This document shows, one piece after another, positions 1-20,277 of a stretch of DNA of 20,277 bases. The DNA lies in contig JAQIBG010000068.1 in NCBI GenBank assembly GCA_027859175.1, positions 1 to 20,277 on the forward strand, read 5' to 3'. A program made the translations under genes and the position numbers. A model generated the notes under the pieces. It saw only the letters and a program-made list of their open reading frames with translations, searched no databases and had not been told where the DNA came from. The number at the start of each line of letters is the position of its first letter. Within the stretch, counting starts at the first letter, position 1. This DNA comes from Planctomycetota bacterium (GTDB taxonomy: Bacteria > Planctomycetota > UBA11346).

Positions 1-3000
1 GTTGAGGCTGACTAGCTGGCGCACCGCAACCTGCATCGGGTCGTCGTCGTCGCCCATTTCTTGGCGGCGCTCGAAGCCGGCGGTGATCGCATCCCAACGC
101 GCCTGCTTCTCGGCGTCCATGTGGCCCACCAGTTGGTAGAAGCGCAGCAGGTTGGCTTCGGCGGCGGAGGTCAGGGTCTGCGATTCCGAGCGGTAGTGGT
201 CGATGACCAGCTGTTCGAGCTCGTCTTCGTTCATGACCGCCACCACCTTCTCGGCGAGCTTGGACATGTTGCGGTACGAGCCTTGCAGCTTGAAGGCCGG
301 TTCGGTGCGGTCTTCATCTGACATCGACGCGGATTCGATGTAGAGCAGGTTAACCTTGAGTAGCACTTGCTGCACCCGGCGCAGGTGACGCAGCACCTGG
401 CAAATCTCATCGAGTTCAACCGCCGCGTAGGGGTGCTCGAGTTCGCTGCGCAGGCTGTCGTCGCCCTCGGCGATTTGGAGCAGACGGTAGAAGTCTTGCT
501 GACTGCGGCTGGCAACCGGGTTCAACACCGGGTTGACGGTCAGGCAGTTTTCGAGGTAGCTGAGCTCGAAGGCCTCGGCGGTGCCGCCGATGATGTCACC
601 CAGGTTGTAGGTGTCGGCGCGATTGGCGAGCATGTCGGGGATCTGGAACTTCTCGCCCGATTCGGTGTAGGGGTTGCCCGCCATCACCACCACAACCTTC
701 TTGCCGCGTAGGTCGTAGGTTTGGGTTTGGCCGCGCCACACGCCTTCGATGCGACGTTGACCGTCGCACAGCGAAATGAATTTCTGCAGCAACTCAGGAT
801 TGCAGTGCTGGATGTCATCCAGGTACAGCATCACATTGTTGCCCATCTCCAGCGCGAGGTTGAGCTTTTCGAGCTCTTGGCGCGCGGTGGCATTGGGGGC
901 CGAGGCGGGATCGATCGAGGTGGCCTCGTGGCCGATCGCCGGACCGTTGATCTTCATGAAGGTTAGGCCCAGCACCGAGGCGATGTATTCCATCAGGGTG
1001 GTTTTGCCGTAACCGGGGGGCGAGATCAGCAGCAGCAGGCCCATCAGGTCGGTGCGCTTAGTATCGCCAACCGCGCCCATCTGCTTGGCGAGGTTGTCGC
1101 CGATCATCGGCAGGTAGACCTCGTTGATCAGGCGGTTGCGAACAAAACTGGTGAGCACGCGCGGCTTGAATTCTCCGAGGCGCAGGCCGCTGCGTTCGCG
1201 GTCGATCAGGTTTTTGCGGAGATCCAGATAGGCCTGGTAGGCAGGGATGGTTTCGCGGTGATGGCGTTCGAGGCGCGGCAGGAATTCATCGATGCGCAGG
1301 TCGAGCTGCTTGTCAGCAATGCGTGGGTGATTGCCGAGGAGGCCCTTCACCGTGACCGCGGTGCGCGCGTGTACCACCTCGTGCTGCATGCTGTCTTTGG
1401 TGAGGATGGTGGCGACGGCTTCGTCGATCACGGGGAGGCTGCCTGGCTTTTCGCCGCGCGCGTAGCGCTCAAGCCAGGCTCGCACTAGGCGGCGCGTGGC
1501 GGCGCGGTCGTCGGTGAGCGCCCGCAGGTCGTCGTCGAAGGCGGTGCGCAGTTGCTTGAGGTCGAGGTGTTCAACGAAGCCATCAATCAAGGTGTCGGCT
1601 TCGCCTGAGCACACGAAGTGTTCGCCGTCGGCTCCGAGTTGATCGAGGGCATAGCGACCCGCCGCGGCGGCGGTGAGGTCTGGTAGGGTCAGGCCTAGGG
1701 CTTGAGCGCTGGCGGCGATGGGGGCTGCCAAGTCGGCGGCCAGGGCGTAGTGCTCGTCGGATAAGCCATAGGCGGCGCGCAGGCGCGCGAGCGAACGGCA
1801 GCGACGGGTTAGCGCGTCGCGCTCGCTGTCATCGATGCCAGTGTACCATAGCAGGGCTGCGGCGCGGGCGTCGGCCGGATGCCGCAATAGGCCAACCGAC
1901 TCGGTCATATGCAGGAGTTGTTCGAGGATTGCGGTAGCGTCTCCATCGTGCAAGCCGCGCTCATAGCCTTCTTCGTAGCGGCCCGAGGCATAGCCCCGCA
2001 CCATCTCGAGCAGGCCCTTGTCTTTCATCGCGGCTTCGCGCAGCTTGGCGATGCTTAGGCCGTCGCGTTCATTGTCGGCGGCATCCAGTATCGACCACGC
2101 CAAGTACTCACCACGGTACACCGCAGTGTTTTCGGACGGGAGCTCTTGGCTCCACAGGTGGCGCGTGGCCAAGAATGCTTCGTCGGTGACGGGCTCGAAG
2201 TAATCGGTGCCACTGAGGTGGAACACCGTGCCCTCATCACGCGGCAGCATGGTGAGCTCGAGGGCCTGACGATTGACGCTGAAGCGATGGCGGCCGAGCT
2301 TAATGGTGTCGCCTTCGAACAGTTCGCTTTGGTCGCGCAGGTGGCGCACCGCGTCTTCGCGCGCGGCCTTGAGCTGCGAGGCGCAGTCGTCGGCTTTGAC
2401 GGTGTCGCCGAGTTCAGTCAGATTTTTGATGATGCCCTTGAGCTTCATCACCATCGGGTCAGACGCGAGATAGGCGTTGAGCTCGTCGATCTCCTTGAAG
2501 CTCATCGAGCGCTTGCGAACGCTGCTGATGATGCGTTCGGCGCTGCGGCTCAACTGCTGGGTGTGGCGTTGACGTTCGTCGAGCAGTTGCTGCTTACGGC
2601 CCTGGAAGGCTTCGTAGATCTCTTCGCGCTTGTCGCCGAGTTGGGTTGCGAACTCGTCGAACTCAACGAACTTGGCCTCGAGTTCTTCCACCGACACCAT
2701 CAGCTTGGCGAGCAGGTCGTCGGTTTTCTCGGGGCTGTCGCACAGGCCGAGGTAGTTGCTGACGGTTTGCGACAGCAGGGTGAACTGGGCTGCAAACTCG
2801 GCGCGCCCTTCGCTGGCGCCGAGCTCTTGGCGCCGGCTGCCGAGCACCGCGCGCGCGCGGTTGAGCTGGCCATACACTTCCGAAATCGCTTCGATGATAT
2901 CGGTGCGTGCGGTGGCATCGGCGATGTCGAGGCCGTTGACGACCTCCATCAGCAGATCGAGCTGACTGGAGATGCTGTCGAGTTCGCCGCCGATGGTCTC

Positions 3001-4860
3001 GCCTTCGGTGGCGGTGTTAATGGTTTCTGCCGCTTCAAGCTGGCCGGCGATGTTGTTGGTGTAGGCGGCCAGCGCGTCTTCGTCTTGCAGACAGGTAACC
3101 GCGCCCTGGCTGAGCTGGTCTTGATTGCGGACGATCTCGTCTTCAAGCGCCTGCAGTGCGGCGTTATCAACGTAACGTAGGCCGCGGGCGGTGTCGACCC
3201 GGCCGCGGATGGCGCGCAGTTGATCGAGCGCGCCGACGTAATCTTCGATGACCGTCTGCTCGGCCAGGGTGATGTCGCGGAACAGCGCGTGGCATTCGTG
3301 TTCGAGGCCCTGCACTTGGCCGGCGGTTTGCGCCTGGATCTGCTGCACCTTCTCGAATTCATCGATCACGGTGTTGGCGGTGCGGCGGATTTCTTGCAGC
3401 TGGGCTTGCAGGCCAAAGGCCTCGTCGTGGCCGAGCCAGTGGTAGCTGTCAGAGGCGCGCGTGATCAGCTTGAGCAGGTCTTGGTAGACCACCGTGCTCG
3501 GCTTTTGGTTGGCAATCAGCCGGTTGACCTGCAGCAGGTCGCTAATGCCGCGTACCAGTTCGCGGTTGCCGATGGTGGCCAGGAAGCAGCTGTCGTCTTC
3601 AACTTCGCTGGCGAAATCTTCTGAGCAGAACGGGGTGGTCCACACCTGCATCGTGTGCAGGCGTTGCGGCTCAGGGTCGGCACGGAACACGATCAACTTG
3701 CCGTCGGGGAACAGGCAGTAGCCGTTGGCGACCTGGGGCTGCGCCACCTCGCGGGTGATCAGGTTGTATTGCAGGAAGATGTAGCGGCCGTCAACGCGGT
3801 GATGGTAGACATAGGCCACGTCTTCGCCGTTGGGGGCGCGGATCTTGCGAATGAACTCCATGTCCTCGGCCGGAATCGGGAACACTTTGTGAGTGCCGTC
3901 GGTGAGGTAGAAGCCGTTGGGGAAAATCAGACCGTGGCCTTCGGGCAACTGCTGGCAACTGTAGCCGAGCGAGTCGATGCGCGTGGCCTGTCGGGTCTGC
4001 TTATTGTAGACGATGTAGCGGTAGGCGGTTTCGCGGTACGGGCGAATCTTGAGGACGATCATCGTCTCGAGATTGGCGTACAAGATCTCAGCGTCGTCGA
4101 GGCCTTGGTTCTGTTCCTCAACGTCTTCGGCGTACACGCCGCTGCCGTCGTCGGTATTGTCTTCGACCTTGATCGTCAAATCGCCTTCGATGCATTCGAC
4201 GAAGATGGTATCGGCAACGTTGACGTGTGGGTGCGCGCCGAGCACGTGGTCTTCACGAGTGGTGCGGATCCACTCGAAATCAAACGAGGGTGGGTAGACG
4301 TGGTCGCGTTCGCCGCGGTTGTCGATGTAGGCGGCCACGCCGGTGGTGTCCAGGCCCCAGCGCAGCACCTTGATGTCAGACGCGCGTTCACCGGTTTGGA
4401 ACACCATCAGCAGGTGGGTGTCGGTGCGACGCAGCTGCATCAGGCGCGCGTCTTTGTAATATTGGAACAGCTCAGTGAAGTCTTTGCCGAAACGCGGGTC
4501 GTTCAGCAATGAGAAGGTGTCGTTGTTGAGGTGTTCGCCATCAAACGCGAGCTTGGCGAAGACGTCGCCAACCGAGGTCTCCTTTTTGAGACCCATGCGG
4601 ACATGGTAGCCGAGTAGCAATTGCTTGTCATTCAGGGAAACCACGTCGCGCGGGATGCAGTTGTTTTCGGTGCGCACCCGTTCGGTGCTGATCAGGGCAC
4701 TTTCAACCCCACCAAATAATTCTTGCCGACGGGTATTGAGCGAGCCAACGCGCTCGCCCAGGGTCGTGCCTTGATCCACCAAACGCTTGCGGATCACCTC
4801 ATAGGTTGAGGCCTCGATCTCACCGCCATCGCTTACTTCGGATGCTACTTCGTCTGCCAT
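1..4860 (-). CDS. Giant multidomain protein (>1620 aa; 3' end lies beyond window start) with an AAA+ ATPase module near the window-proximal part (Walker A ISPPGYGKTT, Walker B VMLYLDD); N-terminal ~1200 aa includes long coiled-coil region; resembles the large 'DUF3686/DNA-repair-ATPase'-type proteins
   Basis: ATG at 4858-4860 (minus strand) preceded by AAGG-type RBS (revcomp GGAACGCAGCAAGGCGAACCATG). Minus-strand frame stays open through all 1620 codons to position 1. I hand-translated the N-terminus (MADEVASEVSDGGEIEASTYEVIRKRLVDQGTTLGERVGS...) and the AAA region around nt 900-1260 (...TDLMGLLLLISPPGYGKTTLMEYIASVLGLTFMKINGP...NVMLYLDDIQHCNPELL...). Long + strand ORFs over this span (2146..3180, 3655..4512) have antisense-type composition. 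The ORF track presumably omits it because no stop codon is inside the window. Confidence 0.8.
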   Translation of the reverse strand, partial: MADEVASEVSDGGEIEASTYEVIRKRLVDQGTTLGERVGSLNTRRQELFGGVESALISTERVRTENNCIPRDVVSLNDKQLLLGYHVRMGLKKETSVGDVFAKLAFDGEHLNNDTFSLLNDPRFGKDFTELFQYYKDARLMQLRRTDTHLLMVFQTGERASDIKVLRWGLDTTGVAAYIDNRGERDHVYPPSFDFEWIRTTREDHVLGAHPHVNVADTIFVECIEGDLTIKVEDNTDDGSGVYAEDVEEQNQGLDDAEILYANLETMIVLKIRPYRETAYRYIVYNKQTRQATRIDSLGYSCQQLPEGHGLIFPNGFYLTDGTHKVFPIPAEDMEFIRKIRAPNGEDVAYVYHHRVDGRYIFLQYNLITREVAQPQVANGYCLFPDGKLIVFRADPEPQRLHTMQVWTTPFCSEDFASEVEDDSCFLATIGNRELVRGISDLLQVNRLIANQKPSTVVYQDLLKLITRASDSYHWLGHDEAFGLQAQLQEIRRTANTVIDEFEKVQQIQAQTAGQVQGLEHECHALFRDITLAEQTVIEDYVGALDQLRAIRGRVDTARGLRYVDNAALQALEDEIVRNQDQLSQGAVTCLQDEDALAAYTNNIAGQLEAAETINTATEGETIGGELDSISSQLDLLMEVVNGLDIADATARTDIIEAISEVYGQLNRARAVLGSRRQELGASEGRAEFAAQFTLLSQTVSNYLGLCDSPEKTDDLLAKLMVSVEELEAKFVEFDEFATQLGDKREEIYEAFQGRKQQLLDERQRHTQQLSRSAERIISSVRKRSMSFKEIDELNAYLASDPMVMKLKGIIKNLTELGDTVKADDCASQLKAAREDAVRHLRDQSELFEGDTIKLGRHRFSVNRQALELTMLPRDEGTVFHLSGTDYFEPVTDEAFLATRHLWSQELPSENTAVYRGEYLAWSILDAADNERDGLSIAKLREAAMKDKGLLEMVRGYASGRYEEGYERGLHDGDATAILEQLLHMTESVGLLRHPADARAAALLWYTGIDDSERDALTRRCRSLARLRAAYGLSDEHYALAADLAAPIAASAQALGLTLPDLTAAAAGRYALDQLGADGEHFVCSGEADTLIDGFVEHLDLKQLRTAFDDDLRALTDDRAATRRLVRAWLERYARGEKPGSLPVIDEAVATILTKDSMQHEVVHARTAVTVKGLLGNHPRIADKQLDLRIDEFLPRLERHHRETIPAYQAYLDLRKNLIDRERSGLRLGEFKPRVLTSFVRNRLINEVYLPMIGDNLAKQMGAVGDTKRTDLMGLLLLISPPGYGKTTLMEYIASVLGLTFMKINGPAIGHEATSIDPASAPNATARQELEKLNLALEMGNNVMLYLDDIQHCNPELLQKFISLCDGQRRIEGVWRGQTQTYDLRGKKVVVVMAGNPYTESGEKFQIPDMLANRADTYNLGDIIGGTAEAFELSYLENCLTVNPVLNPVASRSQQDFYRLLQIAEGDDSLRSELEHPYAAVELDEICQVLRHLRRVQQVLLKVNLLYIESASMSDEDRTEPAFKLQGSYRNMSKLAEKVVAVMNEDELEQLVIDHYRSESQTLTSAAEANLLRFYQLVGHMDAEKQARWDAITAGFERRQEMGDDDDPMQVAVRQLVSLN

Positions 4861-4898
4861 GGTTCGCCTTGCTGCGTTCCTGGTTCTTGGTGGTGCCT

Positions 4899-4994
4899 AG
4901 GTCCTAGGAGGGGCGCGTCGCGCCCCTAGTGGGCCGTAGGGGTCCCAGTCGAGGGCCTACCAGGGGCGCGACGCGCCCCTCCTACGGCCTAGGG
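4899..4994. repeat. REP-like palindromic doublet: two inverted copies of a ~40-bp element, each with a perfect 17-bp GGGGCGCG(T/A)CGCGCCCC hairpin core (4910-4926 and 4963-4979) flanked by GGGCCGTAGG / CCTACGGCC arms
   Basis: Direct reading: cctaggaggggcgcgtcgcgcccctagtgggccgtagg ... cctaccaggggcgcgacgcgcccctcctacggcctagg. It lies in the 141-bp spacer between the flotillin stop (5002) and the giant-gene start (4860). Confidence 0.6.
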
Positions 4995-5001
4995 CCTGTT
5001 A

Positions 5002-7062
5002 TTACTTACCGCCCGAAAGCCAGCCGGCGATTTCGTCGCCGAAGCCCAGTTCTTTGGCCTTGTCGAGCAGGGCCTGGACTTGCTTTGGATCCTTGCCCTT
5101 GGCCAGCTTCGAGAGCAGGCTGGTGGCGGCTAGGTTCTTCAGGTCGTCGGTGCCGAGCTTGCTGTTCGACAAGACTTCTTTGAGGTCTTGCGGCAGCGAG
5201 CGATCGCCATCGATGTATTCCTTGGCTGCGGTCTGCAGGGCGGTGGAACGATCCAGCGCACCGTCGATTGACTTGCCAACCGACACCGCCTTGACGAAGC
5301 GGTCGAAGAAGGCGCCGTCGCCGCCAACAATGTCGAAGCGGGCGCCCGACATGGCGCGGCCGAGGATATCGGCGTTGCGCTCGGCAATGGTGATGTTGGC
5401 TTGGATCTCGGCCTTGGCGATCTCGAGTTCTTTCTCGAGCTTGAGGCGGAACTCCTCGTGCTCGCGGGTCGACTCGTTGAGCAGCTTCATGGCTTCGGCC
5501 TTGTCGCCGATGCCCTTGGCCTCGGCCGCCATCTTGGCTTGCACCGCGCTGGCTTCGGCCGCGCCCTTGTCTTTGATCATCGAAGCTTCGGCTTCACCGC
5601 GGGCGGCAATCACGCCAACCTCGGCTTCGTCGACGCGCACCTTGGCCAAGCCCTGCTTCTCGTTGGCGAGGGCATCGGCTTCTTTGACCTTGGCCTGCGC
5701 GAGGCCGCTGGCGGCTTCGCGGGCCTGGACACCTTCGGCGCGACGGATGTCGGCGATGGCTTCTTTCTCGGCGGCCACTTGCTCGGCTTCGGCCAACACC
5801 AGCCTCTCTTTGGCAGCGAAACCGGCGGCCTGTTCGGCTGCTTCGGCCGCTTTGACTTCGCGCAACTTGGCGTCTTCGGCTTCTTGGCTGGCCTTGGTTA
5901 GCGCCACTTCCTTGTGTCGGTTGGCTTCCATGGTCGCGCGCAGGTCTTTGATCCGCTCTTCTTCTTGGGCCACGCTCTTGTCGACCGCAACGCGCTCGCG
6001 AACCACATCGGCGATGGCTTTCTTCTCGATCTCGAGGGCCTTTTCCTTTTCGATCCGGCTTAGTTCGGTGGCGCGTTCGCGGTTGATGACTTCCAGGTCG
6101 CGTTCTTTCTTGACCCGTTCCATTTCAACCTGCACCGAGCGTTGCCGGTTTTGGTTGGCTACTTCGATTTCGCGCTGGGCATTCTCGCGCTGGATGCCGA
6201 GTTCTTGTTCGGCTTGGATCTTGGCTTCTTCCGAGCGGCGATGCTCTTCGAATTGGACCTTCTGGATTTCGGCCGTCTCGCGGGCGCGAACCACTTCTAC
6301 GTCGCGCTGCTGAATCGAGATCGCTTCCTCTTCTTGCCGTTCAAGCGCCAGGATCGCCTCGCGGGCTTCGACGTCTTGTTTCTTGATGGTTTTTTGCGCG
6401 TCGCGCTGGATTTGATTGGCCTTGACCTGTTCGTCGGAGGTCAGCTCGATGATCTTCTTGCGGCCCTGCGCGTCGAGGATGTTGTCGGGGTCGAGGCTAT
6501 CGAGCGGGGTTTGCTCGAGGTAGTCGATCGCGGCGTCTTCGAGGGTATAACCGTTGAGGTCTTTGCCGATCACATCGATGATGGCTTCTTTGAAGCGCTG
6601 CCGCTCGTTATAGAGCTCGATGAAATCCATCTGCTTACCGACGGTTTTCAGCGCTTCGGAGAACTTGGCTTGGAACAGCGCTTCGAGCGTGCGGATGTCA
6701 GACGCACGGTCGACACCCACCGAGCTGGCAACGTTGAGTACGTCTTCGGTGGTTTTGTTGACGCGCACGAAGAGGGCCACCGTGATGTCGGCGCGGATAT
6801 TGTCCCGACAGATCAGGCCGTCTTTGCCGCGACGGTCAACGTCGATGGTTTTGACCGATATGTCCATGACCTCGGCGCGGTGGATGACTGGATAGACCGG
6901 ACAGCCGGTGAAGGTCACTGTCGGCGTTGCTCGCATTGTGTTGACAATGAGCGCCTTGCCCTGATCTACTTTGCGGTAGAAGGCTTTGAAAAAGGCCACT
7001 GCTGCGAACAGGAGAAAGAAGAGAGTGAAAGCAATAACCGCAATGGTTATGAGTATGCTCAT
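5002..7062 (-). CDS. yqiK: Flotillin / SPFH (band-7) domain protein, YqiK-like, 686 aa, with N-terminal TM helix, SPFH domain and a long Ala/Glu/Lys-rich coiled-coil C-terminal half
   Basis: Translation MSILITIAVIAFTLFFLLFAAVAFF... (TM), then SPFH-like segment (GKALIVNTM...VKTIDVDRRGKDGLICRDNIRADITVALFVRV...), then ~330 aa of E/A/K/R-rich coiled coil, matching the architecture of E. coli YqiK. AAGGA RBS 6 nt upstream (revcomp of 7063-7076). Start overlaps the upstream yqiJ-like stop by 4 nt (ATGA). Confidence 0.85.
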   Translation of the reverse strand: MSILITIAVIAFTLFFLLFAAVAFFKAFYRKVDQGKALIVNTMRATPTVTFTGCPVYPVIHRAEVMDISVKTIDVDRRGKDGLICRDNIRADITVALFVRVNKTTEDVLNVASSVGVDRASDIRTLEALFQAKFSEALKTVGKQMDFIELYNERQRFKEAIIDVIGKDLNGYTLEDAAIDYLEQTPLDSLDPDNILDAQGRKKIIELTSDEQVKANQIQRDAQKTIKKQDVEAREAILALERQEEEAISIQQRDVEVVRARETAEIQKVQFEEHRRSEEAKIQAEQELGIQRENAQREIEVANQNRQRSVQVEMERVKKERDLEVINRERATELSRIEKEKALEIEKKAIADVVRERVAVDKSVAQEEERIKDLRATMEANRHKEVALTKASQEAEDAKLREVKAAEAAEQAAGFAAKERLVLAEAEQVAAEKEAIADIRRAEGVQAREAASGLAQAKVKEADALANEKQGLAKVRVDEAEVGVIAARGEAEASMIKDKGAAEASAVQAKMAAEAKGIGDKAEAMKLLNESTREHEEFRLKLEKELEIAKAEIQANITIAERNADILGRAMSGARFDIVGGDGAFFDRFVKAVSVGKSIDGALDRSTALQTAAKEYIDGDRSLPQDLKEVLSNSKLGTDDLKNLAATSLLSKLAKGKDPKQVQALLDKAKELGFGDEIAGWLSGGK

Positions 7063-7910
7063 GGGGATCCTTTCGAGGCGTCGGGGGTGCCGGTCGAGTC
7101 TTTGTGTTGGTGAGTATGGGCGTCGATGCCAGCAGGGAGGCGTTCTTGTGCCCCTGGGGGCGGCATATTTGCGTCAACTGCGATGTCGGCGCTGATGACA
7201 AGCTTGTTTGGTCCGAGTGGCATGACTGCGTAGTGCTGCTTGGCTTCGTCATAATCGAGAAGGGTGACTTCGTCGCCGGTTGCAAGCCGGTTGGCGTCTT
7301 GGCACACGATGTTCAGCTGAAGTGAGGTGGTGCCGTCGTCTGTTGGTAATGAGGCAAGGCCGAATGTGCTGGTCACTTTGCTGGAGGTCACCGTTGCGGT
7401 ACGGCCGATAAGGTATTCCTGTCCATGCTGCGATACGGTGATGAAGGCAGGTTTCAGTGGCTTGACTGCAAGGGTGGTTAGCCAGACCGCAAACAGGAAG
7501 GTCGCAGCTAACATGCCGCCGCCATAGATCCATGCCCCAACGAGCTCGCGTGCCATGGGGGCGATGGTGGTTTCCGCGATCAGGCTGCTGATCCAGCCAA
7601 AGGCTGTGATGAAACTGACGACGATCGTGACGGGTACCGTGCCGATGGCGAGGGCGTCAAGCATGGAGGAGAGCAGGCCGCCGGAGGAGGCATCGGCACC
7701 GAGTTCCGCGTCTGCGTCTAGGTCCAGATCTGGGTCGACATCCATGTCAACGTCCACATCGACATCGGCATCAGGTCCGTCTGCAGTGAACATATCCAGG
7801 TCAAGGGCGCCGGCTATGATGAGCGACCAATACAGCATGCACACGGCCATTGGAACCGTCCAAATGGCCGTGGGGAATGATTCGATCACTGCGATAAGCT
7901 GGTCGAGCAT
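7059..7910 (-). CDS. yqiJ: NfeD/YqiJ-like inner-membrane protein (DUF1449-type membrane region + C-terminal OB-fold), 283 aa, carrying an unusual acidic (DV/DL)n low-complexity insert
   Basis: N-terminal hydrophobic helices (AIWTVPMAVCMLYWSLIIAGAL; LAIGTVPVTIVVSFITAFGWISSLI), C-terminal beta-rich segment resembling the NfeD OB-fold (LIGRTATVTSSKVTSTFGLASLPTDDGTTSLQLNIVCQDANRLATGDEVTLLDYD), and translational coupling (ATGA overlap) with the flotillin gene as in yqiJ-yqiK. Start codon choice is uncertain (weak RBS at 7910). Confidence 0.7.
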   Translation of the reverse strand: MLDQLIAVIESFPTAIWTVPMAVCMLYWSLIIAGALDLDMFTADGPDADVDVDVDMDVDPDLDLDADAELGADASSGGLLSSMLDALAIGTVPVTIVVSFITAFGWISSLIAETTIAPMARELVGAWIYGGGMLAATFLFAVWLTTLAVKPLKPAFITVSQHGQEYLIGRTATVTSSKVTSTFGLASLPTDDGTTSLQLNIVCQDANRLATGDEVTLLDYDEAKQHYAVMPLGPNKLVISADIAVDANMPPPGAQERLPAGIDAHTHQHKDSTGTPDASKGSP

Positions 7911-8113
7911 CGGGGTTCGCTACCGTATAGCTGGTAGCCTCCTGTCGACGGTCATTCTGCGCCGCCCCTGGTAGCATGCATGCAGGTGTCCCAAACCGAT
8001 TCGCGCACGTGTGCTGCTGCCCTCAGCGCATGCTCAGGGCATGCCCTTGAGGGGGCTCGCACTTGCCGTTACCCTCCACCCTGCCTGAGCTTACTGCAGA
8101 GAGGTCTGTCCCT
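7911..8113. promoter_or_regulatory. Divergent promoter/regulatory region between the yqiJ-like and pspA-like genes; dyad- and direct-repeat-rich; contains a candidate sigma54-type -24/-12 element (TGGtagcatgcaTGCA, 7969-7984, + strand)
   Basis: GCTACC-N8-GGTAGC inverted repeat at 7921-7940. CTGGTAGC direct repeat at 7932-7939 and 7968-7975. TGCATGCA palindrome at 7977-7984. GG-N10-GC spacing is consistent with a sigma54 promoter facing the pspA-like gene (E. coli pspA is sigma54-dependent). Match to consensus is only partial. Confidence 0.3.
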
Positions 8114-8953
8114 ATGTTCCGCGCCATCGCTCGCTGGTTCCGTTCCCTCGGTCACTTCATGTCTGGCCGGGTTGATTCCTCGCGTCGTGGGCTCGATACT
8201 GACCCACATGCGATTCGCTCCAAGTACGACGAGGTGCTGCGCGAGAAAACCGCCAGCATCCAGCAGTATAAGCAGGCCGTGGCCGGCTTGATCGCACAGC
8301 AAGAGCAGAAGATGGCCAAAGCCAAGGCCTTGATGGAAGAGGCCCAGCGCCTTGAGTCGCTCAAGGCCGGCGCCCTGGCCAAGGCCCAGAGCACGGTGGC
8401 AGCGCTCCAGGCCAGCGGTGCAGCCAAGGAGGCCATCCACAGCAATGACGACTACCAGCAGTGCCTGTCGGCCTTCAATGACTTCAAGGGCACGCTGAGC
8501 GAGAAGGAAGCCCGGATCGGTGAGCTTGAAGCCGATGTGTCGGAATACGGCAAGCGCATCACCGACCACCATCGCCAGCTCAAGGAGTTGGTGGCCGACA
8601 TTGAGAAGATCAAGGCTGAGCGGGCCGACGCGGTGGCGGAGGTGATCTCGGCCAAGCAAGAGAAGGAACTCAACGACGCGCTGTCTGGCCTGAACACCGA
8701 GAACAGTGCCGACGACAAGCTCGCCGAGTTGCGCAACCTGCGCCAGGAGCTCAAGGCCGAGGCCAAGGTCTCCAAGGAGCTGTCGGGTTCTGACGCCAAG
8801 TCACGCGAGGCAGAATTCCTCGAATTTGCTAAGAAAACTCAGGGTCAAGACGAGTTCGATCAGTTGATCGGCCTCGCTGGTCAGGCCGACGCCCCGGCCG
8901 CCGACAGCCCTGCTGCCGATCGGCCCGCGGCCGAGGGTAAGTTGCCGGAGTGA
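8114..8953 (+). CDS. PspA/IM30 (Vipp1/LiaH) family protein, 279 aa - bacterial ESCRT-III superfamily coiled-coil membrane-remodelling protein
   Basis: N-terminal amphipathic start MFRAIARWFRSLG (cf. PspA MGIFSRFADIV). DP motif (GLDTDPHAIRSKYDEVL, cf. PspA AEDPQKL). Coiled-coil body. Segment ISAKQEKELNDALSGLNTENSADDKLAELRN aligns well with Vipp1 ARAKAAKANAELQQTLGGLGTSSATSAFERMENK. Start at 8114 is preferred over the ORF-track ATG at 8063 because the protein then begins with the family-typical helix. Confidence 0.75.
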   Translation: MFRAIARWFRSLGHFMSGRVDSSRRGLDTDPHAIRSKYDEVLREKTASIQQYKQAVAGLIAQQEQKMAKAKALMEEAQRLESLKAGALAKAQSTVAALQASGAAKEAIHSNDDYQQCLSAFNDFKGTLSEKEARIGELEADVSEYGKRITDHHRQLKELVADIEKIKAERADAVAEVISAKQEKELNDALSGLNTENSADDKLAELRNLRQELKAEAKVSKELSGSDAKSREAEFLEFAKKTQGQDEFDQLIGLAGQADAPAADSPAADRPAAEGKLPE

Positions 8954-9125
8954 GGGTTCCTAGTTCCTGGTTCCTGGTTCCTGGTGCGCGCTTCGCGCGT
9001 TGGGTGCCGGCAGTAAGCAGCGAGCGGCGGCGTTTGCTCCGATTTGCTCTGATCCGTCGGGCGCGTCTGGTCTCCGACGCGCCGCAGGCGCGTACCAGGA
9101 ACCAGGAACCAGGAACCAGGAACCC
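8954..9125. repeat. MITE-like element, family A, copy 1 (172 bp): ~46-bp imperfect terminal inverted repeats built from (GGTTCCT)4 heptads plus GGTGCGCGCTTCGCGCG, flanking a ~80-bp core
   Basis: Left end gggttcctagttcctggttcctggttcctggtgcgcgcttcgcgcg; right end cgcgccgcaggcgcgtaccaggaaccaggaaccaggaaccaggaaccc. Begins immediately after the pspA-like TGA (8951-8953) and ends 21 nt before the AAA gene ATG. A second copy is at 20097-20237. Confidence 0.7.
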
Positions 9126-9146
9126 TCCCCGCCTCCGGACCGCGGC

Positions 9147-10928
9147 ATGACCGTCCCACCCTTCCTCAGCGACATTGGCCGTCTGTTCAACAGCGGTGAG
9201 GCGCGGGTGGCGGTGCTGACAGGCAATATCCACGATCTGTTTCCGGCGCCCGGTGGTGCTTGGCAGCCCTTGCCCGAGGTGTTGGCCGGGCATTGGCAGG
9301 TGCCGGGCCGCATCGTGCTGACCTATGAGATCAATGGGCCGATCCGGTTTCACCGCCCGCAAGACCGCCAACTGGTCAAAGACGCCTGGCTGCGCTGGCG
9401 CCATGGTCGCGATTCTGGCGACCTAACCCTGGCCAGCCTAGCAGCTAGCGGCGCGGCTCGCGACGAGTTGCTGGCCCATTCGCGCAGTTTCGATGAGCAG
9501 ATCCTGGCTGCGGTGGGCCGCCCCACGGTGGCGCTCGAATTGCTGCGCCAGTGCTGCCTGTGCTCGCGCGCGCGCGACAGCAAGGGTGCGGCCTTCCTTG
9601 AGCCCGACCTGGCGCTGATCATTGAGGGTGCCGACCTGATCCTGCCCGAGGCCCCGGTAACCGGCTTGGCCGATGCCGATCGCCAACGGCTCCACATTGC
9701 GCTCGATTGGTTTGCAGACCCAGGCTTTGCGGCCGGCGCCGATGTGGTGGCCTTGTTGACCGAGGCCGCAGCTGGCCTGAATGCGCGCCTGCTGCGTTTG
9801 CCCGAGGTGGTGAAGATATCGGTAGATGAGCCCGATCGCGATGTGCGGCGAGCCTTCTTGGCGGCGCAGAGCGGCGAGCGTTGGTGCCCCACTGACAGCG
9901 AGTTGGACACCTTGGCCGACGGCACCGCTGGCCTGGGTCTGCAGGCCTTGCGTCAGTTGGCGATGGCCGCTGAGCATGCCGGGCAGGCGCCCGACGAAGC
10001 CGCCGTGGTGGCGCGGGTTGAGCGCCACATTCAGGCCCAATTGGGTGAGGATGTGGTGTCGTTTAAGCGGCCGGGGCATGGTTTGCGCCAGGTGGTAGGT
10101 GCGCGCGCCCTGACCGGGTTTTTGCGTGACGAGCTTGCGCCGCGGATTCGCGCTGGTGGCGCCGGGGCCTTGAGTGGTTGCGCGGTGGCCGGCCCGATCG
10201 GTGCCGGCAAGACCTTCATTTTTGAGGCCCTGGCTGGCGAATTAGGCTTGCCGGTGCTCGAGCTTGGTAGCATTCGTTCGCAGTGGTTTGGGCAGACCGA
10301 TGTCATCATCGAACGCTTGCGCCGCGTGCTCACCAGTCTCGGCCGCGTGGTGATCATTGTCGACGAGGCCGATACCCAGTTTGGCCGCCTGAGCGATCAA
10401 AGCCATGAAACCGAGCGCCGCCTGACCGGCAAGATCCAGGCGATGATGTCTGACCCGGCCCTGCTCGGCAAGGTGTTCTGGTTGCTGATGACGGCGCGAA
10501 TCGAGCGCCTGTCGCCCGACCTGCGCCGGCCCGGCCGCGTGGGTGACCTGATTGTGCCAGTGCTCGACCCCGAGCCTGATGATCGGGCCGACTTCGTGGC
10601 CTGGGCCCTGAAGCCGAGCCTGGGCTCTGAGATCGACCCCGCCGTGCTTGAGCGGATCACAGCGGCTACGTCAGGCTACAGCGCGGCGGCCTATGCGGCC
10701 TTGCGGCGCGAGTTGGCCGCCTTGGGGCGTGTTGATGCCGACCGGGTGCAGGCGCTGGTCGATGACTTGCTGCCGGCCGATATCGGCGCAGCACGGCGCT
10801 ATCAGACGCTCCAGGCCCTGGTCAATTGCACCCGCCGCAGCCTGCTGCCCGATCCTACGGTCAGCGAGGCCACACGCGAGGCGTGGCACAACGAGTTGCG
10901 CAGTCTCGAAGCGCGCGGCCTTGCTTAG
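9147..10928 (+). CDS. Classical-clade AAA ATPase (FtsH/CDC48/Vps4-type AAA module) with a ~380-aa N-terminal domain of unknown function, 593 aa
   Basis: Walker A GPIGAGKT, Walker B VVIIVDEAD, second region of homology MTARIERLSPDLRRPGRVGDLIVPVLDP (cf. TNRPDxLDPALLRPGRFD). True start taken as ATG 9147 (MTVPPFLSDIGRLF...). The ORF-track start at 9000 reads through the MITE (QEPGTRNQEP) and is rejected. Confidence 0.8.
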   Translation: MTVPPFLSDIGRLFNSGEARVAVLTGNIHDLFPAPGGAWQPLPEVLAGHWQVPGRIVLTYEINGPIRFHRPQDRQLVKDAWLRWRHGRDSGDLTLASLAASGAARDELLAHSRSFDEQILAAVGRPTVALELLRQCCLCSRARDSKGAAFLEPDLALIIEGADLILPEAPVTGLADADRQRLHIALDWFADPGFAAGADVVALLTEAAAGLNARLLRLPEVVKISVDEPDRDVRRAFLAAQSGERWCPTDSELDTLADGTAGLGLQALRQLAMAAEHAGQAPDEAAVVARVERHIQAQLGEDVVSFKRPGHGLRQVVGARALTGFLRDELAPRIRAGGAGALSGCAVAGPIGAGKTFIFEALAGELGLPVLELGSIRSQWFGQTDVIIERLRRVLTSLGRVVIIVDEADTQFGRLSDQSHETERRLTGKIQAMMSDPALLGKVFWLLMTARIERLSPDLRRPGRVGDLIVPVLDPEPDDRADFVAWALKPSLGSEIDPAVLERITAATSGYSAAAYAALRRELAALGRVDADRVQALVDDLLPADIGAARRYQTLQALVNCTRRSLLPDPTVSEATREAWHNELRSLEARGLA

Positions 10929-11064
10929 CAAATCTGTCACCCAGATGGTGGCGTGGTCAAACGACTGGTCGAGACCGCCGGTAACCGGTGGATGCGCCAC
11001 GTGATGGCGTGGATGCATGGCGCTGCTTGCCGGCGCCTTGCGTGAACCAACCCTGGGCCCAGTG

Positions 11065-12237
11065 ATGAATCAAAGCAGCGCATCTGAGAGCGGCAGCCAG
11101 CCCTTGCCCGACCTCCCGCCACGTGCACGCATCGTGCAGGTGGTGCGTGATTGGATTGAGAGCGGCGAGCTCCAACCCGGCGCGCGCTTGCCGGCCGAGC
11201 AGACTTTGGCCGCGAGCCTGTCGGTGGCGCGCGGCACGGTGCGTCAGGCCTTGGCTGAGTTGGTTGATCTTGGTCTGCTCGAGAAGCAGTTGCACCGCGG
11301 CCATGTGGTGAGCGCGCAGGTAACGACTGGTTCGAGCTTGATGGCGCGCACCTGCTTGTTGCTGGGCGAACTGGTTGAGCAGCGTGAACCGGTGCCTGGT
11401 TTCGATGAGGCGGTGGTTAGCGGTGCGGCAGCGGCTTTAGCTGGGGCGGTGTTCAATCGTCTGAGCTTGCATCCCAATATGCTCGATGTGGATGAGGGTC
11501 GTCGTATTGCGATGGAGCGTCCAGCGGGGGTTATTGCCTGTCACTATGCCAGCTCAACTGAGCGTGGCCGGGCCTTTGTCGACGTCTTGGCGGCGGCGGG
11601 CGTGCCCTGTGTGGTCAATGGCGGTAATGCTTGGTGTGAAGGCTACGATCGCGCCGTGAGCGATCAGGAGCAGGGCGGCTATCGTCTGACGCGTTTGCTG
11701 ATTGAGCGTGGTCGCCGGCACTTCGTATTGCTGTCGACCGCTGCCGATGAGCCCTACTGGTTGATTGAGCGCGAGCGTGGAATCCGCCGCGCTTTGGACG
11801 AGGCCGGCTTGCCGCCGATCACCGTAGTGCCGATGCAGGTGGCGCCGCGCAGCGACACCGAAGATCTTGCTAATCTCGATCAGCGCACCCGCACCTATGC
11901 CGGTCATCTGGTTGAGCACTGTCAGGGCAAAGACGCCGCCGATGCGGTGATGGTGCTCTCAGACAGTGACTGCGCTCCAGTGACTGCCGGCCTTCGTCTA
12001 TGCGGTCTCGACCCAGCCTCGCAGGTCGACGTGGTTGGCTACGACCATTACTGGAATAACGACGCCATGTGGGAGCGCCGCCACGAATCGGTGCCGCCTC
12101 TGGCCACCGTCGACAAGCGCAACACCGCGGTTGGTCGCGCCCTGGTTGAACTCCTGATGAACCGCGTCGAGGGCGAAGTCAGCGACGACACGCCCCGCGT
12201 CCGCTGGATCGAACCCGAACTCGTCCAACTCCGTTAG
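11065..12237 (+). CDS. Hybrid transcriptional regulator: GntR-type winged-HTH N-terminus fused to a LacI/PBP1-like periplasmic-binding-protein-fold sugar-binding domain (~390 aa)
   Basis: HTH segment RLPAEQTLAASLSVARGTVRQALAELVDLGLLEK is typical of GntR. Remainder has PBP-fold hallmarks (alternating hydrophobic beta-strands / helices, VVGYDHY.., ATVDKRNTAVGRALVELL). Alternative in-frame start ATG 11017. Convergent with the GH36 gene. Confidence 0.6.
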   Translation: MNQSSASESGSQPLPDLPPRARIVQVVRDWIESGELQPGARLPAEQTLAASLSVARGTVRQALAELVDLGLLEKQLHRGHVVSAQVTTGSSLMARTCLLLGELVEQREPVPGFDEAVVSGAAAALAGAVFNRLSLHPNMLDVDEGRRIAMERPAGVIACHYASSTERGRAFVDVLAAAGVPCVVNGGNAWCEGYDRAVSDQEQGGYRLTRLLIERGRRHFVLLSTAADEPYWLIERERGIRRALDEAGLPPITVVPMQVAPRSDTEDLANLDQRTRTYAGHLVEHCQGKDAADAVMVLSDSDCAPVTAGLRLCGLDPASQVDVVGYDHYWNNDAMWERRHESVPPLATVDKRNTAVGRALVELLMNRVEGEVSDDTPRVRWIEPELVQLR

Positions 12238-15572: not shown

Positions 15573-16707
<1,135 letters not shown>

Positions 16708-20063: not shown

Positions 20064-20096
20064 TCAAGAGGGAGTCCCGGAGTGTTGTGGCTGGGC

Positions 20097-20237
20097 GGGT
20101 TCCTGGTTCCTGGTGCGCGCTTCGCGCGTCGTCGGCATGGTCATCGGCTCTCGGCCGTCTGGGATGATGAGGCGTGACGCGCGCGAGCACCAGCCGGCAT
20201 CCAACGCGCCGAAGGCGCGCACCAGGAACCAGGAACC
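20097..20237. repeat. MITE-like element, family A, copy 2 (141 bp): TIRs (GGTTCCT)2+GGTGCGCGCTTCGCGCG / CGCGCCGAAGGCGCGCACC+(AGGAACC)2, different core from copy 1
   Basis: gggttcctggttcctggtgcgcgcttcgcgcg ... cgcgccgaaggcgcgcaccaggaaccaggaacc. Both copies are followed by (C)TCCCC.CC. Confidence 0.65.
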
Positions 20238-20277
20238 TCCCCTACCGCCCACCTCGAAATGCCGACGGACTCTGCCC

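Follow-up and report, generated by a model that had tools for sequence, protein, structure and literature searches.

Back-to-back predicted membrane-remodeling modules in a Planctomycetota contig: a PspA-like/tandem AAA ATPase gene pair divergent from an NfeD-flotillin-giant ATPase operon

The closest described counterparts of the locus considered here come from the comparative genomics of Ravi et al. (2024, mSystems, PMC11237479; preprint 2020). That study described a dyad in which PspA is paired with a protein composed of an inactive classical AAA domain followed by a classical AAA domain, as well as an extension of the dyad that adds an ABC ATPase, a permease, a PBPB-OmpA protein, and a transmembrane-anchored Snf7-like protein (for example, AEY64321.1 and OGG56892.1). 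It also described a triad of YqiJ/YuaF, a Band-7/flotillin protein, and a beta-propeller/coiled-coil AAA+ protein that stands beside a CesT/Tir-PspA dyad, and an abbreviated triad form of the CesT/Tir-PspA operon, exemplified by ANH61663.1 of Dokdonia. The analogy with ESCRT-III and Vps4, and roles for both modules, were already proposed there. We analyzed a stretch of DNA, referred to as the window, that is one complete contig of 20,277 bp (JAQIBG010000068.1) from a metagenome-assembled genome (MAG) of a Planctomycetota bacterium. In its first half a PspA-like gene and a tandem AAA ATPase gene stand back to back with an NfeD-flotillin-giant ATPase operon. The novelty that an earlier note on this DNA implied was overstated, because both modules and the ESCRT-III/Vps4 analogy are found in Ravi et al. 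(PMC11237479).

Connections between PspA-family proteins and SPFH proteins have been described in other settings. The SPFH protein YdjI of Bacillus subtilis is needed for PspA localization (cited in PMC10936438), and in the B. subtilis pspA-ydjGHI (SamGHI) system, the SPFH protein is reported to recruit PspA (PMC8581546; bioRxiv 10.64898/2026.02.06.704340). Genes for solute-binding and SPFH proteins are part of some archaeal ESCRT loci (PMC10936438). According to a 2025 review, bacteria appear to lack a Vps4-like ATPase (PMC7619361). Literature searches found no experimental work on either of the two ATPases considered here, and no papers on DUF3686 or on a bacterial combination of ESCRT-III with a Cdc48-type or tandem AAA protein.

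On balance, we lean toward the interpretation that the locus comprises two back-to-back predicted membrane-remodeling modules, in which the PspA-like/AAA pair would work as Vps4 does on ESCRT-III, on a Cdc48/p97 chassis. The evidence is the conserved pairing of the PspA-like and AAA genes, the domain architectures of the encoded proteins, an almost invariant C-terminal tail on the PspA-like protein, and the recurrence of the flotillin operon beside the pair. Six-frame analysis recovered five long open reading frames (ORFs) in positions 1 to 10928, at the positions and in the divergent layout claimed earlier. These are not chance ORFs, because they are long, are conserved, and have hundreds of homologues. 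The sole amendment concerns the PspA-like gene, whose start was revised to the ATG at 8114, yielding a protein of 279 amino acids (aa), the same length as its homologue P0001. The stop of the NfeD/YqiJ gene overlaps the start of the flotillin gene by 4 nt (ATGA), which confirms the translational coupling proposed for these two genes. The features are as follows.

1..4860, minus strand: giant ATPase ORF, 1620 aa, frame open to the left edge of the window
4892..4996, minus strand: hairpin of ~100 nt in the flotillin-giant ATPase spacer, predicted by RNA folding
5002..7062, minus strand: flotillin/YqiK-like SPFH protein, 686 aa
7059..7910, minus strand: NfeD/YqiJ-like membrane protein, 283 aa
7911..8113, no strand: intergenic region that separates the two divergent operons, holding the motif GCCTGAGC
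8114..8953, plus strand: PspA-like gene, 279 aa
8952..9127, no strand: palindromic repeat element in the PspA-like/AAA spacer, 176 nt, with (GGTTCCT)n arms
9147..10928, plus strand: tandem AAA ATPase gene, 593 aa

The conservation of the pair was evaluated in a scan that took a single genome for each GTDB species and found at least 546 relatives of the AAA protein. Eighty loci were kept, and ten reference proteins were mapped onto them. In 63 of the 80 loci, the two genes share a strand, with the PspA-like gene upstream of the AAA gene, and most of the remainder were cut by contig ends. The phyla with the pair include Planctomycetota, Verrucomicrobiota, Hydrogenedentota, Sumerlaeota, Acidobacteriota, and Desulfobacterota, among others. 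The PspA-like and AAA genes are a conserved gene pair, usually with an ABC transporter between them. They are directly adjacent in 16 of the 63 loci and also in the window and in three further loci (L092, L093, and L094) that were obtained separately. One additional locus, L090, is the same contig as L063.

The most common layout among the 80 loci is a co-directional set of eight genes (47 loci), which is truncated in another 11. The bare PspA-like/AAA pair accounts for 16, and 6 have another or an uninformative layout. The gene order in the eight-gene operon is a vWA protein, a transmembrane protein with periplasmic-binding protein (PBP) and OmpA domains, a transmembrane coiled-coil protein, the PspA-like protein, a solute-binding protein, a permease, an ABC ATPase, and the AAA protein. 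Examples are L003 (2601-11800) and L014 (2373-11812), with ~45 more. The transmembrane coiled-coil protein of this operon is the 'TM+Snf7' protein of Ravi et al.; neither it nor the solute-binding protein had a match in Pfam. The earlier proposal of a dedicated PspA plus AAA unit thus holds for the pairing, but the two genes are mostly split by an ABC transporter in an operon of eight genes that is free of flotillin. Two loci carry the bacterial-type operon under unexpected titles, a 'Candidatus Bathyarchaeia archaeon' MAG (L074, DATKVG010000055.1) and an 'uncultured Bifidobacteriaceae' MAG (L052, CAZNOE010000095.1). Their AAA proteins are ~50% identical to that of the window and are nested among bacterial sequences in the tree, which suggests binning contamination or mislabeling and not that these are the real hosts.

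The PspA-like protein is not a canonical PspA, and we consider it highly probable that it represents a divergent subfamily of the PspA/IM30-ESCRT-III superfamily. PF04012 was the most common Pfam match in its family, found in 18 of 41 members at an E value of ≤0.01 (best, 9e-7) and, in a second family sample, in 13 of 64 members at an E value of ≤0.001 (best, 3.4e-7). For some close homologues there are precomputed PF04012 matches, or NCBI calls them 'PspA/IM30 family protein'. When 64 diverse members with 27 to 55% identity were combined in a profile (A5), it matched Vipp1/PspA chains among PDB sequences at E values of 1e-7 to 6e-6. The predicted structure is also consistent with membership in the superfamily. 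The AlphaFold 2 (AF2) model of the protein, with a predicted local distance difference test score (pLDDT) of 76, has helices at residues 3-17, 32-101, 113-194, and 200-252, and its hairpin of 70 plus 82 residues was modeled with a pLDDT of >90. It therefore displays the parts of an ESCRT-III fold, which are an N-terminal amphipathic helix, a long alpha1/alpha2-3 hairpin, and further helices. The hydrophobic moment of the protein is at its maximum in the first 16 residues, which is what a membrane-binding helix alpha0 should show. When the model was searched with Foldseek, ranks 1 to 11 were all Vipp1 (E values of 5e-4 to 3e-2), with TM-scores that were modest (0.34 to 0.42 on query length), which is not surprising for helical proteins that are flexible.

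The assignment rests on remote evidence because searches with the protein's own sequence against PF04012, and searches for canonical PspA, fail. The window protein scored 13 bits (E value, 0.079) against PF04012 and did not reach the gathering cutoff of 33.9; the weak match is collinear, from aa 40-247 of the protein to positions 29-209 of the 220 in the model. As a control, an E. coli PspA sequence scored 166 bits against the same model. A profile from a narrower family set (A1) retrieved nothing relevant among PDB sequences, and phmmer with the PspA-like protein against the same sequences returned coiled-coil noise only. Comparison of A1 and A5 with this E. coli PspA sequence alone in hhalign gave a probability of 0.4 to 1%. 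A HMMER search of 1.84 billion representative proteins with the family profile found 574 proteins without reaching canonical PspA; all 574 belong to the same family, which is therefore sharply delimited. Spurious matches are common among coiled-coil proteins. These points count against the PspA assignment and against the ESCRT-III-like role proposed for the protein. The 'PspA/IM30' identity given earlier is thus not borne out by the protein's own PF04012 score, but family-level profiles and the fold do link the protein to PspA and Vipp1.

The PspA-like protein ends in K-L-P-E (8942-8953 of the window), which follows a variable low-complexity linker of ~20 residues. The terminal LPE-COOH was present in 119 of 120 close homologues (P0001 to P0120), and among distant members of the family, LPE, or LPE followed by 1 to 3 residues, is frequent. 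The helix preceding the linker (EAEFLEYA...EFDxLIGL) is also conserved in the family. The tail is a candidate for a short linear motif that serves in docking or recognition.

The sequence of the partner protein indicates a p97/Cdc48-like tandem AAA ATPase, with a dead D1 and a classical D2 of the active type. D2 matched PF00004 over residues 347-466 (E value, 2e-15). Its Walker A (GPIGAGKT, 349-356), pore loop (WFG, 380-382), Walker B (VDEAD, 405-409), and arginine fingers (RRPGR, 460-464) were invariant in 40 homologues. The sensor-1 position reads T-A-R, not T-N-R, in an alignment inspected by eye. The best NCBIfam model for the protein was CDC48 (3e-14), with CdvC at just 6e-4. Among PDB sequences the AAA family profile matched VAT, p97, and Cdc48 at E values of 1e-25 to 1e-29, and other matches were AFG2, NSF, NVL, and katanin; Vps4 was absent among the 60 PDB matches listed. 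The AF2 model (pLDDT, 90; predicted TM-score, 0.80) aligned in Foldseek over 615 to 670 columns with p97, Cdc48, N-terminally deleted Rix7, NVL, and Drg1.

The N-terminal region had been described as a 380-aa domain without a recognizable feature. The Foldseek alignments and an internal hhalign comparison instead identify it as a degenerate AAA module, an internal duplicate that lacks Walker A. D1 (aa ~1-330, beginning at about residue 5) has no P-loop, with LTGNIHDLF instead, and its Walker B is degenerate (IIEGAD). When the N-terminal 329 residues of the family alignment were compared with the C-terminal 264 residues, hhalign returned an E value of 9e-6 over 191 collinear columns, pairing IIEGAD with Walker B and LLTEAAAGL with sensor-1/the second region of homology. 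The resulting architecture fits neither of the best-known classes exactly. Vps4 and CdvC have a single AAA cassette, and this protein has two AAA modules; Cdc48 and p97 have an N-terminal double-psi barrel and a nucleotide-binding D1, and this protein has neither. Of the earlier description of a classical AAA ATPase of the Vps4 type, the classical clade stands for D2, but the Vps4 type does not, as the protein is a tandem AAA for which Cdc48 and VAT score best.

The minus-strand operon of NfeD (YqiJ), flotillin, and a DUF3686 giant ATPase is of a widespread type and is predicted to encode an SPFH membrane-microdomain scaffold with its own ATPase. Membership of the giant ATPase in DUF3686, previously suggested, was confirmed by an end-to-end Pfam match to PF12458 (aa 34-474 to model positions 2-448 of 448; E value, 4.8e-181). 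Pfam also placed DUF7902 at aa 595-679 (E value, 7e-26), within a long helical/coiled-coil stretch that forms the middle of the protein, and, near residue 1280, a P-loop module of the AAA_5 type (E value, 1.2e-8), where the motifs are a Walker A PPGYGKT at aa 1281 and LYLDD at aa 1345. Complete homologues have 1720 to 1867 aa, and therefore the giant ATPase of the window lacks ~100 to 250 C-terminal aa. The 'DNA repair' in the family label of DUF3686 is an annotation name only; both in this locus and in Ravi et al., the setting is membrane associated.

The flotillin has an N-terminal transmembrane segment (a hydrophobic N terminus), a Band_7 domain, and a long coiled coil rich in Glu, Ala, and Lys. 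It is 43 to 68% identical to the flotillins of related triads. The fragment of aa 1-221 matched Band_7/SPFH over aa 31-209 (E value, 6.3e-11). Neither the full-length protein nor aa 222-686 had any Pfam match, probably because the E/A/K/R-biased coiled coil is compositionally extreme and HMMER bias filters may drop matches. The NfeD/YqiJ protein matched YqiJ_N marginally (23.2 bits against a cutoff of 23), and the Pfam search found no match to the C-terminal NfeD OB-fold model. The order NfeD, flotillin, giant ATPase was kept in all related loci with sufficient sequence, in which the position directly upstream of flotillin is occupied by a gene as well. In L094, the gene at the position of the giant ATPase is cut by the end of the locus and has no Pfam call.

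The NfeD-flotillin-giant ATPase triad lies within 10 kb of the bare pair in eight loci, in three layouts. The layout is divergent in the window, L009, L093, and L094; it is a co-directional five-gene cluster, with 30 bp from the giant ATPase gene to the PspA-like gene, in L061 and L075; and it is convergent, with the two modules 4 to 5 kb apart, in L006 and L045. In a rough neighbor-joining tree of the AAA protein, the eight loci fall into three separate clades, in which all informative loci are positive. The triad accompanied the bare pair in 8 of 14 informative loci and was found in none of the 47 eight-gene loci (Fisher P = 1e-6, uncorrected for phylogeny). The genes outside the five-gene block differ among the window, L093, and L094, and a crude estimate of the chance of at least three independent co-localizations within 10 kb is ~7e-5. 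The coupling of the pair with the triad is recurrent and probably functional. The flotillin/NfeD/DUF3686 set and the ABC/OmpA/Snf7-like set look like mutually exclusive alternative partners of the pair. In L006 (8393-12285), the 4.9 kb between the AAA and giant ATPase genes holds two unrelated ORFs of 369 and 789 aa on the opposite strand, which may be an insertion.

The divergent intergenic region contains the motif GCCTGAGC at 8083-8090, which was conserved in the alignment of all four divergent loci. GCYTGAGC lies 31 to 69 nt upstream of the PspA-like start in each of these four (the window, L009, L093, and L094) and was found in none of 58 other loci, with a background of 0.007 per 120 nt. 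A promoter or operator element specific to this clade is one possible identity for it. A simple scan of 4700-11200 revealed no sigma-70-like promoters, and terminator-like sites occurred at chance level. A sigma-54-like TGG..N..TGC near 7969-7983, noticed by eye, was dropped as unconserved in the alignment.

The gap of 194 bp between the PspA-like and AAA genes is nearly filled by a palindrome of 176 nt (-132.9 kcal/mol; z, -10.3), with arms of tandem GGTTCCT heptamers, 40 nt long and 95% complementary, around a GC-rich core. In L093 and L094, just 13 bp separate the two genes. The gap in the window is therefore an inserted element resembling a repetitive extragenic palindrome (REP) or a miniature inverted-repeat transposable element, and the alternative that the spacer marks a boundary between separate transcription units was rejected. 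The heptamer palindrome is outside the conserved design, and it might modulate relative expression of the two genes. A second copy is present at ~20095-20240, downstream of a pirin gene. A near-perfect hairpin of ~100 nt (-89.8 kcal/mol; z, -7.85), possibly an intercistronic RNA structure or a REP-like palindrome, is predicted in the 141-nt spacer that separates the flotillin gene from the giant ATPase gene; none of 200 shuffled sequences equaled its stability. The sequence of this hairpin is unlike that of the heptamer element, and the 5' leader of the giant ATPase gene holds one AACCAGGAAC unit.

The remainder of the contig (11017-20013) is unrelated to the two modules and is a polysaccharide/sulfatase-type neighborhood. 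It encodes a GntR-HTH plus periplasmic-binding-type regulator, two AraC regulators, a 650-aa protein with a weak TIM-barrel match only, a sulfatase, and the pirin, together with an IS110-family transposase at 15706-16707.

In the mechanism that we propose, the PspA-like protein would bind the inner membrane via the amphipathic helix alpha0 and polymerize via its helical hairpin. A hexamer of the tandem AAA protein would then grip the PspA-like protein with its D2 pore loops, with the K-L-P-E tail as the likeliest handle. Pulling would extract or unfold subunits, so that the PspA-like polymer would be disassembled, recycled, or remodeled. In this lineage, the flotillin/NfeD/giant ATPase scaffold would probably provide the membrane platform or recruitment site. 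Elsewhere that role would pass to the PBP/OmpA protein, the transmembrane-anchored Snf7-like protein, and the ABC transporter. A more ambitious version, in which the pair is a genuine bacterial counterpart of ESCRT-III and Vps4, with the ATPase docking on the tail to disassemble or constrict PspA-like polymers, and joins the scaffold in a single five-protein machine that repairs membranes or forms vesicles, is possible but doubtful.

Several observations speak against the proposal of Vps4-like modules that cooperate at the membrane. The majority of relatives of the pair are tied to an ABC transporter rather than to flotillin, a context that could point to a function in transport or in the assembly of an envelope complex instead of in membrane repair. 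The coupling with the triad is facultative. Six bare-pair loci with full flanks have no triad, bare pairs with unrelated neighbors exist, and in all six metagenome loci where the giant ATPase remains part of the triad, the available flanks (0.4 to 10 kb per side, depending on the contig) contain neither a PspA-like nor an AAA gene; two further metagenome matches to the giant ATPase were too short to judge. Pfam and NCBIfam searches revealed no MIT domain in the AAA protein, as was suspected from the outset, and the protein has no known ESCRT-III-binding module. The facultative linkage also supports the idea that the modules are independent and are neighbors through gene order inherited in a few lineages. 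The triad-free bare pairs, all 47 of the eight-gene loci, and the solitary metagenome triads fit that idea, as does the collapse of the eight positive loci to three lineages. We nevertheless regard independence as unlikely, while giving it real weight. The layout is different in each of the three lineages, and one layout is tight enough to leave 30 bp between the giant ATPase and PspA-like genes; the outer flanks vary; the chance estimate is low; and links between PspA and SPFH proteins have been published in other systems. The earlier suggestion that the pair and the flotillin operon constitute one system is therefore supported by recurrence in eight loci and three layouts, but the association is optional, with many loci lacking it.

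If the AAA protein were a general Cdc48-like unfoldase or extractase, the PspA-like protein could be its adaptor or regulator rather than its substrate. The nearest solved relatives, p97, Cdc48, VAT, and AFG2, are general segregases, and the company that the pair keeps in most genomes, an operon that includes vWA, PBP/OmpA, and ABC transporter genes, hints that an envelope complex is being assembled or checked for quality. There is also precedent for a regulator, because PspA inhibits the AAA+ protein PspF (PMC7619361). However, the locus offers no protease partner and the AAA protein no N-domain for substrate recognition, and the 1:1 pairing with an invariant tail fits a dedicated substrate or client at least equally well. 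We judge this explanation improbable. Anti-phage defense or abortive infection, with the ATPases acting together with a membrane effector, can be put aside as very improbable. Large coiled-coil ATPases beside membrane proteins do occur in defense islands, and the IS110 transposase is 5 kb away, but the PADLOC matches were weak, covered short P-loop or coiled-coil stretches, and were no better than an E value of 2.9e-6. Furthermore, the neighbors are genes for carbohydrate/sulfatase metabolism and regulators, and the family occurs in conserved operons, not in variable islands.

The PspA-like/tandem AAA family, widespread in at least six phyla, is a candidate regulator of the disassembly or remodeling of bacterial ESCRT-III-type polymers such as those of PspA and Vipp1. 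If the five-protein counterpart of ESCRT-III and Vps4 were real, it would contradict the review-level view that bacteria have no Vps4-like regulator. Vps4 is thought to have been derived from Cdc48 by the loss of one ATPase domain. If the same proposal is true, the pair might represent a parallel or an intermediate stage of such a transition. With just five genes, the version in the window is the most compact one and would be convenient to reconstitute. The concept has been published from comparative genomics, and the value of the present analysis is in refinement and testability rather than in finding a system of a new type. Apparently new are the combination of dyad and triad in eight loci, its exclusivity with respect to the transporter set, the invariant K-L-P-E tail, and explicit evidence of D1 as an internal duplicate.

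Comparison with known systems places the locus between several described arrangements. In SamGHI, as here, a PspA-family protein is genetically linked both to an SPFH protein and to a membrane partner of the NfeD type; SamGHI differs in its SPFH subfamily and is not reported to include an AAA ATPase or a giant ATPase. The Ravi triad shares with the window an NfeD/YqiJ protein, a flotillin, a giant AAA+ protein whose published description fits the DUF3686 architecture, and an adjoining PspA-family gene. However, the PspA-like protein of the window belongs to a different subfamily, a divergent one, and is partnered by a tandem AAA protein, not by a CesT/Tir chaperone, and the layout of the window is divergent, not co-directional, although L061 and L075 are co-directional.

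The window resembles the Ravi dyad in that its PspA-family gene has as partner a two-domain AAA protein in which the N-terminal copy is inactive, and relatives of the window pair carry the vWA, PBP plus OmpA, transmembrane coiled-coil, solute-binding, permease, and ABC ATPase genes. The window itself, in contrast, has a bare pair set against a flotillin operon, with no transporter genes. Sameness was judged by architecture, and the gene order around OGG56892.1 differs from the dominant order found here. The type II proteins Cdc48, p97, and VAT have the same tandem D1-D2 fold and provide the best sequence and structure matches, but the AAA protein of the window is much shorter (593 aa), with no N-domain and no Walker A in D1. 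In comparison with ESCRT-III and Vps4 (CdvB and CdvC), the AAA protein of the window differs in its two AAA modules, its lack of an MIT domain, and its better scores with Cdc48 and VAT. What the two systems share is a gene for a superfamily polymer beside a classical-clade AAA protein with a pore loop and arginine fingers, and the conserved C-terminal tail of the PspA-like protein, a possible docking motif, extends the likeness.

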